This document shows positions 133 through 4,234 of a stretch of DNA of 4,234 nt, piece after piece; within the stretch, counting starts at the first letter, position 1; every line of letters starts with the position of its first letter. The position numbers and the translations under genes were made by a program. The notes beneath the pieces are model-generated. The model worked only from the letters and a program-made list of their open reading frames with translations. It did not search any database and was not told the DNA's origin. This DNA comes from a plasmid: the NCBI RefSeq assembly GCF_056746865.1, contig NZ_JBWKMP010000009.1; one strand, 5' to 3'.

Positions 133-408
133 ATGAGCAGAACGCTCGAACAGAAGATTGCCGAAGCTGAGGCCAGATTACAGCGCCTGAAGGCGAAGAG
201 CCGGAGCCTGGACACTGCGCAAAAAGTCATTGTGGGAGCAGCCATGCTGGCGAGGGTACGGAGGCCGGAAGAGGCGCAACTGCGTGCGTTCCTGCTCCAG
301 TTCCTGCGAAAGGAAGTCACAAGACAGGCCGATGTGAACCGGCTACAACCACTGATTAACGAGCTGGAGAAGCTACCAAGACCACCTGCGAAACCGCAGA
401 ACGGATAA
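133..408 (+). CDS. mobC: MobC/TraD-family relaxosome accessory protein, 91 aa (MOBQ mobilization accessory protein)
   Basis: ORF with an SD. The N-terminal coiled-coil-like segment (EQKIAEAEARLQRLKAK) and central motif QKVIVGAAMLARV resemble RSF1010 MobC (about 94 aa; recalled motif RKVLVGAMILAKV). Small size and apparent divergent placement relative to mobA across oriT fit. Homology is recalled, not searched. Confidence 0.75.
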   Translation: MSRTLEQKIAEAEARLQRLKAKSRSLDTAQKVIVGAAMLARVRRPEEAQLRAFLLQFLRKEVTRQADVNRLQPLINELEKLPRPPAKPQNG

Positions 409-574: not shown

Positions 575-620
575 CTCAAAAAAGCGCCGAAAAGGCGCTG
601 TTATCTGATAAGGCTATTTG
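575..620 (-). other. ori: ColE2-type origin of vegetative replication (Rep binding and primer synthesis site), abutting and overlapping the rep stop codon
   Basis: The minus strand reads AAATAGCCTTATCAGATAACAGCGCCTTTTCGGCGCTTTTTTGAG. The block AGCCTTATCAGATAACAGCGCC (plus coordinates 594-615) matches what I recall of the ColE2-P9 minimal origin, and ColE2 ori is known to lie immediately 3' of rep. Recalled, not aligned. Confidence 0.6.
577..599 (-). terminator. Hairpin AGCGCC-GAAAA-GGCGCT followed on the minus strand by T6; probable intrinsic terminator for rep, embedded in the ori
   Basis: Seen in sequence: 6-bp GC-rich stem (583-588/594-599) with a 5-nt loop. On the minus strand it is followed directly by TTTTTTGAG. 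It lies 15 nt downstream of the rep stop codon. Confidence 0.45.
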
Positions 621-1522
621 TGCATTGCCCAATTACGGATCGTATTTCGATGTACATCCAGCATCGCCGCAATAGCTTTCTGAGAATATCCATTCTCCAG
701 CATACATAGCGCCATGAAACGCTTGTCCTCGTAGGCTTCGCCTTTAGCAAGGCCACCTTTCCGGCCTCGAGCGGCCTGTACAGCGGAAAAGCCTTCCGGT
801 GAGAATTTTCTGTGCGTGTATTTCGCAATGCTCTTGCCAATAGCCCGGCATTCAGCCAGTGAAAGAGGAACGGGAAGCGATGCGTTGTACATTTCGACAC
901 GCTGGATCACGGCATCAAGCCACTGTGAGAATGCTGGCCATCCCTGACGAATCGCTCTGTAAGCCCATTTACGCGTTATTTCGAACAGGTGGCAGTTTCG
1001 CCCCAGCCCGTAATGTTTATCGACGCTACGACGCTCTGAGGCGCTCAAATCGAGATAATCAGCCAGTTCATCGAGGGTATAGGCTTCCTCGCGCCACTCC
1101 ATCACCTGCCATTCCAGGTGGAACGGATTTTTGCAAATCAGTCCGCTGTAGTTCACATCTGCGTCAAGTTTCTCACACAGCGCACGTTCAATTGCAGCGG
1201 CGTATTTCAGCACCTTAACCGACGCATCAGGCGCGGTTCTCACGGCAAGATTGAGCGCGTATAGCAGGTGAGCGTGCCCATTCACGGGATTTTTTACGGT
1301 GATGTTCGGCGCGGGGGCGTTCCGGTCGCTCCAGTCAATCGCAGCCCCCTCGCGGTCAACGTCAAAAACCAGCCAGTGTTGCGCATGTGGCTGGTTCTGC
1401 TGAATGTACCGCGCAAGAAGCGCACGCCCTTTGCCGGAGATGCGAAGGCCGAAAGCGGGATCATCCGTGTGATAGGGACGGTGAGGTAAATTTTCTTCGA
1501 AGTATTGAAGCGCGGCGCTCAT
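614..1522 (-). CDS. rep: ColE2-type plasmid replication initiator Rep, 302 aa (plasmid-specified primase with C-terminal HTH DNA-binding region)
   Basis: A 302-aa ORF matching the size of ColE2-family Rep (about 35 kDa). The C-terminal stretch SQKAIAAMLDVHRNTIRNW is HTH-like. The conserved ColE2 ori block sits immediately downstream. SD GGAAGGA lies about 9 nt upstream of the ATG. Overall similarity to ColE2/ColE3 Rep is from memory. Confidence 0.9.
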   Translation of the reverse strand: MSAALQYFEENLPHRPYHTDDPAFGLRISGKGRALLARYIQQNQPHAQHWLVFDVDREGAAIDWSDRNAPAPNITVKNPVNGHAHLLYALNLAVRTAPDASVKVLKYAAAIERALCEKLDADVNYSGLICKNPFHLEWQVMEWREEAYTLDELADYLDLSASERRSVDKHYGLGRNCHLFEITRKWAYRAIRQGWPAFSQWLDAVIQRVEMYNASLPVPLSLAECRAIGKSIAKYTHRKFSPEGFSAVQAARGRKGGLAKGEAYEDKRFMALCMLENGYSQKAIAAMLDVHRNTIRNWAMHK

Positions 1523-1897: not shown

Positions 1898-1938
1898 CGC
1901 CTCACGGGACGCGGAATTTTTTCGTGTCCCGTGAGACG
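1898..1938 (-). terminator. Probable intrinsic terminator downstream of mobA (about 13-bp stem, 9-nt loop, then UUUUCUGG on the minus strand)
   Basis: Seen: CTCACGGGAC (1901-1910) pairs perfectly with GTCCCGTGAG (1926-1935), with extra flanking pairs. On the minus strand the hairpin is followed by TTTTCTGG (plus coordinates 1890-1897). It lies about 30 nt after the mobA stop at 1969-1971. Confidence 0.45.
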
Positions 1939-1968
1939 TTGGCGGGGTTCGGGGTGCAGCCCCGGATA

Positions 1969-4188
1969 TCACATACTCATGCCCCGGTAATGTCCGGGGC
2001 GTCGTTGTTGTTGCCTGTGCTGTTCGTCCCGCTTCCATTCATGCCAGGTCTGATTAAATCCGAGTTGACGGAAGAGATAATCCGGCATCTCTTCCGGTTT
2101 GTGGACAGCAGCCAAAAGCCTGTCATGATGGCCTTTGAGCCGGAACTGCATCAGGTGCGGTTCCGGTGGGTACGGAGTATCCGCATCATGGTTTATAGCT
2201 TCTCCGTAACCTGCCAGGCATACCCCGTTCTCCGTGATGGTGCTGACTATCAGATGACTGTAATCCGGCGACGGAAGCGCAAGAACGGGACGCAGCCCGT
2301 CCTCCTGACGCACAAATCCGACAAGCACTTCCTCCGGCCCTTTGCACAACAGCAGATTCAGCGTCCTGCTGTTTCGCTCTGTCGAAAATACAACGGGCAT
2401 GAGTTGCTCCGGTGCCGCATAAGCGGTGACGTCCACCCGGTGCGCAGACGGCAGCGGAGAGGCTACGGGCCTGCGGTCGTCGCTGAAATAAAAATTATCC
2501 GGCCAGTGATGCGGCAGCGCCGGAAAACCGTAAGAGGGCCACCCCTGGCGCATCTGTTCCAGTACATGCCGGACCGTCGCACCGGAATACATTCTCACAC
2601 GCTCAGGCCGCGCCATCGTCTCATGAGATTCTGGCATTCCCTCACGTATATCCGAGACCATCACAGCCCCGCCTGGCGACAGGTAAACATTCACCGGGTC
2701 ATGAACACTCTGGGGGTAATGCGCCAGCTCATCACCCCATACCGTGAATTCTCCGGCTCTGTTACTCAGCATCATGTAGCGGGTTATCCTGCCCGTTCCC
2801 GGCTCTCTGGCACGCCCCAGCCCCGTAATAACCCCGGCTAATGCCGTTTCACGGCTCAGGCGATGGTTATCATGGTGTTTCAGCCGTGCGTCATATTCCT
2901 GTTCCTTCCGGCGCGCTTCCGCTTCGGCTTCCTCCCTGCGCCGCTCCGCTTCCCGTGCTGACAGTTTTTCTTTCAGCTCTGCCATTCCCGGCGAAATCCA
3001 CGTATTCCACTGCGTTTCAAAGGCCTGACGACGGGCGGGAATGTCCCGTTCTTTCACGGCCCTGTAGGTGCGGCGAAGAGATTCAATCTGTTTCTCGAGT
3101 TTCCAGAAGCGGAGTTGTCTTTTGCGGTATTCCGGTTCAGCCCATGTCATCAGGGGAAGCTCTGACAGGATGGACGCTACCGGACGGGCTTTTCTGAGTC
3201 CGGTCATCTCTTTTTCGAGAATATCCCGCTCTTTCACCAGCGCATTCCCCTCACGTTTGATGTCGTTTGCCTTCCCGTTCATCGCCACGAACTCCGGTGT
3301 CATCTCCCATGCGTTCCCGCATTCCTGCGGCAGTGTGGCAATGAATTCCCGCAGGGTATCCGCTGAGGCATTCGCGGCGGGAATGGTCAGATTAAGGGCT
3401 TCCGCTGCACGACGTGCGGCATCGCTGAGTTCCCGTTTCCGCACGTTCTCCTGTACCTGGATGACTGCCAGCCTTGTGCGGGAAACCTGTATTTCCAGGT
3501 TAAGGCTGTTAATCAGGCGGTTCTGCTCACCGCGTTCTGTTTCCATGCCCCGTTTTTCCATCGCACAGGCAGCCTTTCCGAGGTGAAGGCCCGGCGCTTT
3601 CTCCAGTCCCTGACGCTCGTATGAACGATGGTCTATCTCTTCCTGGTAGCCGGCGTTCGCAAGCGCTCTGTTCGCATGGTCAGCCCATGATGCGCGCCAC
3701 GTCTCGGCGAGTGCCCGGTCGTTCCAGTCCCTGACCTTTCCTGCGAATCCCGTTTCCCCGACAGCTCTCGTGGTCAGCATGATGTGTGCATGGGGGTTGG
3801 TCCGGTCCATATGATGGAACGCCACATCGGCAATCATGCCCCGACTGACAAAGTTTTCCCGGACAAAAGCGAGAACGGCCTCCCGTGCGGCCTCGCGGGA
3901 AATCTCACGGGGAATGGCGAGTTCAATCTCCCTTGCCAGCTGGGAGTTCCGGCGCTGTTCGGCTTTCTCGACCGCATTCCAGAGAACGGAACGGTCACCA
4001 CACCAGGACGGTGCATTCACAGGGGTGAGAATGACCGCATCATCAACGCCGCGTTTACGGGTGTAATCGTGGGTTAATCCGGTACGGTCATCGGGTATGA
4101 CAGAGCCGGAACGGTAGGCAGCAGAAGCAACGGCACTGTAGCCGTTTTTTCGCGAAATGATTTTCATGCTGAGATGATAAATCGCCAT
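1969..4188 (-). CDS. mobA: MOBQ-family relaxase MobA (MobA/MobL-type), 739 aa: N-terminal relaxase domain, charged coiled-coil linker, about 295-aa C-terminal domain of unknown function
   Basis: The N-terminus MAIYHLSMKIISRKNGYSAVASAAYRSG closely resembles RSF1010 MobA (MAIYHLTAKTGSRSGG...), with the catalytic Tyr at residue 25 (codon 4114-4116). His-rich metal-binding motif HHMDRTNPHAHIM is at residues 125-137 (about 3778-3816). The charged linker spans residues about 405-440. The C-terminal domain (about 1972-2856) was not recognized. Confidence 0.9.
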   Translation of the reverse strand: MAIYHLSMKIISRKNGYSAVASAAYRSGSVIPDDRTGLTHDYTRKRGVDDAVILTPVNAPSWCGDRSVLWNAVEKAEQRRNSQLAREIELAIPREISREAAREAVLAFVRENFVSRGMIADVAFHHMDRTNPHAHIMLTTRAVGETGFAGKVRDWNDRALAETWRASWADHANRALANAGYQEEIDHRSYERQGLEKAPGLHLGKAACAMEKRGMETERGEQNRLINSLNLEIQVSRTRLAVIQVQENVRKRELSDAARRAAEALNLTIPAANASADTLREFIATLPQECGNAWEMTPEFVAMNGKANDIKREGNALVKERDILEKEMTGLRKARPVASILSELPLMTWAEPEYRKRQLRFWKLEKQIESLRRTYRAVKERDIPARRQAFETQWNTWISPGMAELKEKLSAREAERRREEAEAEARRKEQEYDARLKHHDNHRLSRETALAGVITGLGRAREPGTGRITRYMMLSNRAGEFTVWGDELAHYPQSVHDPVNVYLSPGGAVMVSDIREGMPESHETMARPERVRMYSGATVRHVLEQMRQGWPSYGFPALPHHWPDNFYFSDDRRPVASPLPSAHRVDVTAYAAPEQLMPVVFSTERNSRTLNLLLCKGPEEVLVGFVRQEDGLRPVLALPSPDYSHLIVSTITENGVCLAGYGEAINHDADTPYPPEPHLMQFRLKGHHDRLLAAVHKPEEMPDYLFRQLGFNQTWHEWKRDEQHRQQQRRPGHYRGMSM

Positions 4189-4234
4189 TTCTGCCGTAAT
4201 GCCTTTTTGCCGTTTTCTTTTAGCGTCGCAGACC

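Follow-up and report, generated by a model that had tools for sequence, protein, structure and literature searches.

What is the function of the last ~300 residues of the relaxase MobA, and where else do they occur? The question is raised by a small plasmid (NCBI RefSeq assembly GCF_056746865.1, contig NZ_JBWKMP010000009.1), whose 4,234 nucleotides are the window, the whole stretch of DNA analysed here. Its mobA gene (1969-4188, minus strand, as are all the features of MobA given below) was identified from the list of open reading frames (ORFs) and the annotation of homologues, and encodes a MOBQ4-type relaxase of 739 aa plus a stop codon. A first-pass annotation, made from the DNA letters alone, had recognised no motif in the C-terminal region and had offered three options for it: a coupling-protein or type IV secretion system (T4SS) interaction domain, a diverged primase or a novel fold. 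The question bears on the choice of substrates by I-type conjugation systems, which are ancestors of the Legionella Dot/Icm system and major carriers of extended-spectrum β-lactamase (ESBL) genes; the export of their Sog protein has been known since the 1980s. The analysis revealed that MobA carries the conserved extreme C-terminal module of Sog, of ~300 aa, which is not in Pfam. We give even chances to the proposal that this module, named here Sog-C, is a recruitment or translocation determinant for I-type T4SSs that derives from, or mimics, the Sog of the helper plasmid.

The C-terminal module of MobA and Sog

By homology and structure, the C-terminal domain (C-domain) begins at aa ~439-449, and not exactly at residue 445 as first annotated. 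It is delimited here as a Sog-C-type domain of aa 439-739 (1972-2874), on the basis of BLASTP against IncI Sog, tblastn, phmmer and AlphaFold2 (AF2) modelling. BLASTP aligned MobA aa 449-733 with aa 946-1246 of the 1255-aa IncI Sog (34% identity, E 5e-49), the identity being 48% in the C-terminal lobe (C-lobe) described below, and phmmer gave E values from 1.4e-46 to 3e-31 to other Sog-like representatives. A hidden Markov model (HMM) built from the family extends over Sog aa 932-1255, while the Pfam layout of Sog comprises DUF5710 (aa 8-59), Toprim_3 (aa 266-365) and LPD7 (aa 776-861). Since the shared region lies downstream of Toprim_3 and LPD7, the shared piece is the extreme C-terminus of Sog, far from the primase. 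In SogL and SogS of R64 and ColIb-P9 (both IncI1), the conjugatively transferred primase, the last ~320 residues of both forms are homologous to the MobA C-domain. In contrast to the Sog homologues, MobA lacks DUF5710, the Toprim primase region and LPD7, and part of the first lobe is deleted. Judged by sequence, MobA is not a member of the Sog family as a whole; only the terminal module is common.

Part of this relationship is already on record. The length of SogL has been given as 1255 aa (PMC6112013), and a single sentence in Garcillan-Barcia et al. 2019 attributes to the C-terminal part of MobA a "low homology to SogL primases" (PMC6856555). That paper neither specifies the matching part of SogL nor proposes a function for the region, and it draws no link from the region to helper preference. 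MobA, its family, its helper preference and the one-line SogL similarity are therefore already published (PMC6856555). The literature searched contained no account of a shared piece delimited to the non-primase end, of its confinement to two architectures of exported proteins, of its linkage to I-type operons in different genera, of a predicted fold with two barrels, of evidence for module exchange or of the targeting hypothesis.

The impression that the region holds no recognisable motif was right in so far as no curated family covers the domain, and incomplete in so far as the end of IncI-type Sog is a clear relative. Residues 445-739 gave no Pfam or NCBIfam match at E<=1, only one chance-level match to PDB sequences at E<=10 (E 1.6), and no PDB match with a profile of 17 homologues (best E 0.037), so that no well-characterised family could be assigned from Pfam or PDB. 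The region had also been described as W-, H- and P-rich, with the peptide HYPQSV...PERV (aa 490-531) as an example. His (5.4%) and Pro (8.8%) bear this out, but Trp is unremarkable (1.7%).

These searches bear directly on the idea of a diverged primase, functionally like the RepB fused to the MobA of RSF1010. The precedent is real, as the MOBQ1 protein MobA-RepB of RSF1010/R1162 likewise joins an N-terminal MOBQ relaxase, a linker and a large C-terminal domain on which its lifestyle depends, and the published wording of homology to SogL primases (PMC6856555) leans the same way. Nevertheless, the homology falls at Sog aa 932-1255 and not in the Toprim region at aa 266-365, the predicted fold is all-beta, no Toprim or other primase signature is present, and neither sequence nor profile searches of Pfam, NCBIfam and PDB found a primase. 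The first-pass annotation had already judged an RSF1010-style RepB primase redundant in a replicon with a ColE2-type Rep, and no RepB similarity was detected by sequence, profile or fold. The ColE2-type Rep primase-initiator already present makes a MobA-linked primase unnecessary. A primase is effectively excluded, and we give it next to no weight.

The C-domain was modelled with AF2 from a 17-sequence alignment with good confidence (mean predicted local distance difference test, pLDDT, 86.4; predicted template modelling score, pTM, 0.68), and its predicted fold is all-beta, with two barrels. The N-terminal lobe (N-lobe; aa 449-513, 2650-2844) is modelled as a five-stranded barrel similar to the oligonucleotide/oligosaccharide-binding (OB) fold with one short helix, with lower confidence towards its end, and another helix follows at aa 536-549. 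The C-lobe (aa 565-695, 2104-2496), which is the best-conserved part, appears as a meander beta-barrel with the motifs LLL, G(V/F)VR, AGYG and F.L; its core reaches a pLDDT of 92-97, with lower values (69-90) over aa 565-597. Two short predicted helices (aa 703-729, LGF.QTW..W; H266-272 and H278-292 in domain numbering) and a disordered polar/basic tail (aa 730-739, RRPGHYRGMSM) complete the protein (1972-2082), as judged from the model and from homologue tails, with a pLDDT of 54-68 at the end. The columns of the C-domain that are invariant across MobA and Sog hold Gly, Leu, Phe and Pro. A Foldseek search gave a best match of only E 0.015. Local matches included the OB-like domains of hSSB1 and RuvBL, and no primase, BID, XVIPCD or TraI-TSA structure was found among the matches. 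Judging from the aligned lengths, it is probably the N-lobe that accounts for the OB matches and the C-lobe for those to barrels.

The OB-like matches raise a second explanation, which is also an old proposal for the Sog polypeptides. The OB-like lobe might bind the transferred strand, in the donor or in the recipient, for protection, to help termination and recircularisation, or to recruit priming. A module found in both MobA and Sog would in that case point to a task on the DNA side and not to secretion targeting. In addition to these Foldseek matches, it has been speculated that Sog coats the transferred strand (PMC6112013). The conservation pattern makes this handling of single-stranded DNA (ssDNA) an unlikely purpose of the module. 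Conservation is lowest in the OB-like lobe, which is partly deleted in MOBQ4 MobAs; these lack a segment present in Sogs (alignment columns 113-155, where the pLDDT is 44-79). The conserved core is instead the second barrel with the LGF.QTW helix, and more distant homologues keep only query residues ~160-280, corresponding to the second lobe. Furthermore, a generic ssDNA binder predicts neither the strict C-terminal position nor the lineage match to helper Sogs described in the next section. If the module were nevertheless a domain for handling ssDNA, a role would be assigned to the essential, unexplained SogS region.

The rest of MobA agrees with the first-pass annotation, which had seen a MOBQ relaxase in the N-terminal ~200 residues and a separate C-terminal module after a charged linker. 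The relaxase (HUH) domain occupies aa 1-213 (3550-4188). Pfam MobA_MobL (PF03389) matches aa 18-213 (1e-69, 235 bits; cutoff 26.7), NCBIfam MobQ (NF041496) scores 259.5 bits against a cutoff of 200, and the PDB relaxases 4HT4 and 2NS6 (NES/MobA domains) match at 2e-29 and 4e-9. The catalytic Y25 of motif I lies in AAYRSG, and H125, H133 and H135 of motif III (HxDxxxPHxH) in HHMDRTNPHAH (aa 125-135), the Tyr and the His triad being those assigned as catalytic in PMC6856555. By curated cutoffs and catalytic motifs alike, MobA is a MOBQ relaxase.

The middle region (aa 214-438, 2875-3549) is Glu/Arg/Ala-rich (13.9% Glu, 13.0% Arg and 12.1% Ala over aa 214-444, 39% combined) and is predicted to be mostly alpha-helical. 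The Arg/Glu/Ala-rich linker first noted at 2869-2976 contains the highly charged segment REAERRREEAEAEARRKEQEYDARLK (aa 412-437, 2878-2955), which would form the C-terminal end of a long helix. The full-length AF2 model predicts one unbroken helix over aa 352-438 (2875-3135; block pLDDT ~74-90), ending just before the C-domain, and aa 260-440 are helical at pLDDT ~80-90; this model was poor overall (pLDDT 55, only six sequences) and was used solely for the helical middle region. The prediction supports a long charged helical linker joining the relaxase and the C-domain. No Shine-Dalgarno-led start near aa 400-450 was found for an internal in-frame start of a separate C-terminal polypeptide, as in SogS or RepB'. 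A weak candidate start, the ATG of M303 (3280-3282) with GGAG 9 nt upstream, could in principle yield a 437-aa C-terminal polypeptide comparable to SogS or RepB'.

Distribution and probable exchange of the module

A tblastn search with the C-domain against the 72,556 plasmids of PLSDB returned 2609 records. Besides small MOBQ plasmids, these included ~1900 large conjugative plasmids matching with ~34% identity over ~95% of the query (E ~1e-47), and the matching genes are annotated as "LPD7 domain-containing protein", "DUF5710 domain-containing protein" or "DNA primase". One IncI-gamma/K1 plasmid has the matching gene between traJ/traK and traL/traM/traN and with a product of 1255 aa, which is the position and size of sog. 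Five conjugative plasmids were inspected, namely IncI-gamma/K1 and IncI1/B/O plasmids (both from Escherichia) and plasmids of Pseudomonas, Serratia and Klebsiella oxytoca. In all five, the Sog-like gene lies within a Dot/Icm-like transfer operon, with traJ/dotB and icmT upstream and dotI, dotH and traO downstream. The Sog-like LPD7 genes of the last three occupy 1137-5429 (Pseudomonas, L007), 2139-5375 (Serratia, L008) and 2196-5321 (Klebsiella, L009). The K. oxytoca plasmid is typed by MOB-suite as "non-mobilizable, MPF_T", despite its Dot/Icm-like cluster.

The protein contexts of the module are few. An exhaustive phmmer search of 1.84 billion cluster representatives gave 57 matches, and the module stands at the very end of every long protein (for example 1058-1357 of 1369, 1133-1410 of 1423, 998-1215 of 1226 and 928-1219 of 1232). 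Pfam scans of 19 homologues showed only two N-terminal architectures, either a MobA_MobL relaxase (four, including this MobA) or combinations of DUF5710, Toprim_3 and LPD7. Word-indexed homologue searches added near-identical fragments or partial Sog-like proteins only, and no new architecture. When a whole 110-kb IncI plasmid (996 six-frame ORFs) was compared with the family HMM, only Sog matched (E 2e-136); the search for a second copy of the module was negative for the relaxase NikB and for all other ORFs.

A second E. coli MobA (P0031/P0077) has a relaxase domain 67% identical to that of the MobA studied here but a C-domain only 26% identical, and over 283 residues the C-domain of P0031 shares 78% identity with the Sog-like P0039 of IncI1/B/O-type plasmids. 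Similarly, the C-lobe of a MOBQ41 MobA is 70% identical to IncI Sog, in comparison with 50% to this MOBQ42 MobA. In neighbour-joining analysis with 300 bootstraps, P0031 MobA grouped with P0039 Sog at 97%, while the MOBQ41 and MOBQ42 MobAs grouped at 95% and were nested with IncI-type Sogs at 96%; an N-lobe-only bootstrap was left out owing to saturated distances. The MobA modules are thus polyphyletic, being found in two separate Sog-containing clades, which points to domain exchange. The sequence comparisons imply either that relaxase and sog genes have exchanged the module on more than one occasion, or that its divergence has closely tracked that of the helper lineages.

The plasmids that encode P0031-type MobAs, of ~4.95 kb (L013, 1-4971; L014, 1-4954), form a third type among the small MOBQ4-like plasmids of E. 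coli. They carry a Rep_3 replicon, a mobC-like gene of 96 aa and a gene of the SdiA-regulated family.

Exchange on a smaller scale may be visible between close relatives. Against a 98.7%-identical plasmid (L001), 33 of the 56 differing sites are in the C-lobe, in a candidate recombination patch at MobA aa 582-695 (2103-2446), 18 are in a second patch in the oriT/mobC 5' region (4221-4234 plus 50-180), and the remaining five are spread over ~3700 bp. By region, the identity to a near-identical relative is 99.7% in the relaxase and 99.9% in the middle region, and falls to 96.0% in the C-domain. The clustered differences look like recombination patches at two sites expected to carry specificity.

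The lineage match between MobA modules and helper Sogs is also what a Sog-Sog association domain would predict. MobA would in that case bind the Sog of the helper and ride along with its export, with no direct contact to the coupling protein. Sog is the sole helper-encoded protein with the module, the MobA modules follow particular Sog lineages as expected of a homotypic interface, and Sog is exported in large numbers (PMC8406263). Such a piggy-back route is rather improbable. Nothing indicates oligomerisation of Sog through this region, and the AF2 monomer is compact and confident without a partner. Moreover, PMC6112013, in its passage on earlier R64 work, reports that deletion of sog cuts R64 transfer only ~ten-fold, which makes dependence on Sog a weak route.

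Candidate functions of the module

The proposal of a recruitment determinant, the best supported of the three original options on comparative evidence, can be formulated as follows. The N-terminal HUH domain would nick the origin of transfer (oriT) and stay covalently bound to the transferred strand, with the long charged helix acting as a spacer. The last ~300 residues of MobA would be a Sog-C module, the same as at the end of Sog in I-type (Dot/Icm-like, MPF_I) plasmids, and would bring the MobA-ssDNA complex to the I-type T4SS of the helper. In doing so, the module would mimic, or would have been copied from, Sog, the helper's own abundantly exported protein. We infer both that the secretion system recognises this part of the protein and that a TrbC/DotL-type coupling protein, or its partners, would be the receptor.

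Every step from a shared module to a signal is likewise inferred, on circumstantial grounds: the C-terminal position, the two classes of exported proteins, the linkage to MPF_I operons and the published helper preference. Relaxases are piloted through the secretion system together with DNA, and Sog, like a relaxase, is a protein substrate of a conjugative secretion system, among the few for which this is proven. The targeting reading follows from the fact that only this strictly C-terminal module and a disordered polar tail are common to MobA and Sog. A folded C-terminal domain with a disordered tail is typical of type IV secretion signals (BID plus tail, XVIPCD). Schulein et al. 2005 reportedly described the BID domain with a charged tail as a bipartite type IV secretion signal common to Bartonella Beps and alphaproteobacterial conjugative relaxases. 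This would be the closest functional analogy, as a folded C-terminal domain with a polar tail is there also common to a relaxase and a non-relaxase substrate. However, there is no relationship in sequence or fold, and the class of secretion system is different. Other signal domains are the XVIPCD of Xanthomonas effectors (PMC8740702) and TSA/TSB of F/R1 TraI (PMC3912908).

Published transfer data are in line with such a role. SogL is transferred in hundreds of copies and independently of DNA, as stated in the passage of PMC8406263 that cites Wilkins & Thomas 2000. The MPF_I helpers R64drd11 and pCTX-M3 are the best mobilisers of MOBQ4 plasmids, and natural co-residence of MOBQ4 with MPF_I plasmids has been reported (PMC6856555). 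Transfer was found to require the SogS part but not sogL's N-terminal quarter (PMC4288162, Table 2), and sogLS was needed in a second study by transposon-directed insertion-site sequencing (TraDIS; PMC10286972).

The insertion data also bear on a recipient-side role, in which the module would act after arrival, in establishment or anti-defence, like the cargo domains of "polyvalent" transferred proteins. Sog is among the LPD7 polyvalent proteins, proposed carriers of early-acting effector domains (PMC5512222). We regard this role as very improbable. In both TraDIS screens, transfer itself was lost upon insertion into the SogS part, the invariant residues of the module do not look catalytic, and the published helper specificity points to the donor side.

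Several observations weigh against the module as a recruitment determinant. The TraDIS requirement for SogS could reflect polarity or a different function, and no experiment mapping the export signal of Sog to these residues was found in the accessible literature. As NikB and all other ORFs of the IncI plasmid are devoid of the module, it is not a general DNA-substrate signal of I-type systems. R64 mobilises ColE1 well without this module, and the MPF_T plasmids RP4, R751 and R6K also move MOBQ4 plasmids, albeit less well (PMC6856555); I-type mobilisation in general thus does not depend on the module, which is not strictly exclusive either. In the predicted structure, the OB-like N-lobe would fit nucleic-acid binding as well as protein recognition. 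Finally, old co-divergence, and not repeated transfer, could account for part of the split into two MobA clades.

A broader version of the recruitment proposal is also conceivable. Sog-C may be the first recognisable folded signal domain of conjugative type IVB systems, repeatedly pirated by small plasmids from the Sog of their helpers, with the variant carried tuning the choice of helper within the I-complex. We advance this version tentatively and consider it less probable than recruitment itself.

Although mobA is an ordinary gene of a very common plasmid, it provides a testable handle on how I-type systems recognise Sog and relaxases. A compact, well-predicted module of ~300 aa, present both in Sog and in relaxases of small plasmids that are very common in enterobacteria, constitutes a concrete object for study. 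If targeting is its function, the module would account for the joint travel of MOBQ4/ColE2-type plasmids with plasmids of the IncI, IncK, IncB/O and IncL/M groups, would allow helper range to be predicted from sequence, and could be used to tag proteins for delivery by I-type systems.

The plasmid and its other genes

The 4234 bases constitute a complete small circular plasmid, matching end to end many 4234-bp plasmids of Salmonella and E. coli with 98.5-99.2% identity; the single 4234-bp relative inspected is of replicon type Col156 and MOBQ. It carries three genes: rep, mobC and mobA. In 98.7%-identical plasmids, mobA is annotated as "MobQ family relaxase". Its reading frame is genuine, since it is open in relatives of ~41% to 95% protein identity and its substitutions are most frequent at third positions of codons (18-19 of 35). 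By contrast, a 305-aa antisense ORF opposite the MobA C-domain (1924-2841, plus strand) is almost certainly no gene, since only 126-159 aa of it remain in plasmids 96% identical there, and 68 aa in a MOBQ41 plasmid.

The ColE2-type Rep primase-initiator (614-1522, minus strand), recognised as such in the first-pass annotation, was identified by PF03090 Replicase (5.8e-45), PriCT_1, a C-terminal helix-turn-helix (HTH) and the Col156 type. The mobC gene (133-408, plus strand) diverges from mobA across the coordinate origin and encodes a relaxase accessory protein of 91 aa, named from the annotation of its homologue in L004. The MobC sequence reached the threshold of no Pfam or NCBIfam family, and the 91-aa ORF is a "hypothetical protein" in most near-identical records. 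The oriT region is split by the coordinate origin into 1-132 and 4189-4234, which on the circular plasmid join to form the 178 bp between mobC and mobA. Both parts were placed by the gene organisation in PMC6856555, in which the oriT of the MOBQ4 family is a 178-bp fragment between the divergent mobA and mobC. An Rfam search of the 4234-nt plasmid gave no match.

With mobA, a divergent mobC, an intervening oriT and a ColE2-like (Col156) Rep, the plasmid belongs to the MOBQ4 family, subgroup MOBQ42 (ColE2 replicon). The MOBQ4 relaxases, both MOBQ41 (the MobA of pE2022_4/pIGWZ12) and MOBQ42 (ColE9-J/ColE2-type), show the same gene order and a ColE2/Col156 replicon. The MobA studied here is 95% identical to that of a colicin E2 plasmid, and its full-length identity to a MOBQ41 MobA is 54%. 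A colicin operon is said to occur in all MOBQ42 plasmids (PMC6856555), but this plasmid has no colicin, immunity or lysis genes; the missing operon is a cargo feature with no bearing on relaxase membership. The colicin-bearing relatives are of 6.7-8.1 kb, and in two of them (L003 and L005) the operon is located between mobA and rep, a segment of only 446 bp (1523-1968) in the present plasmid.

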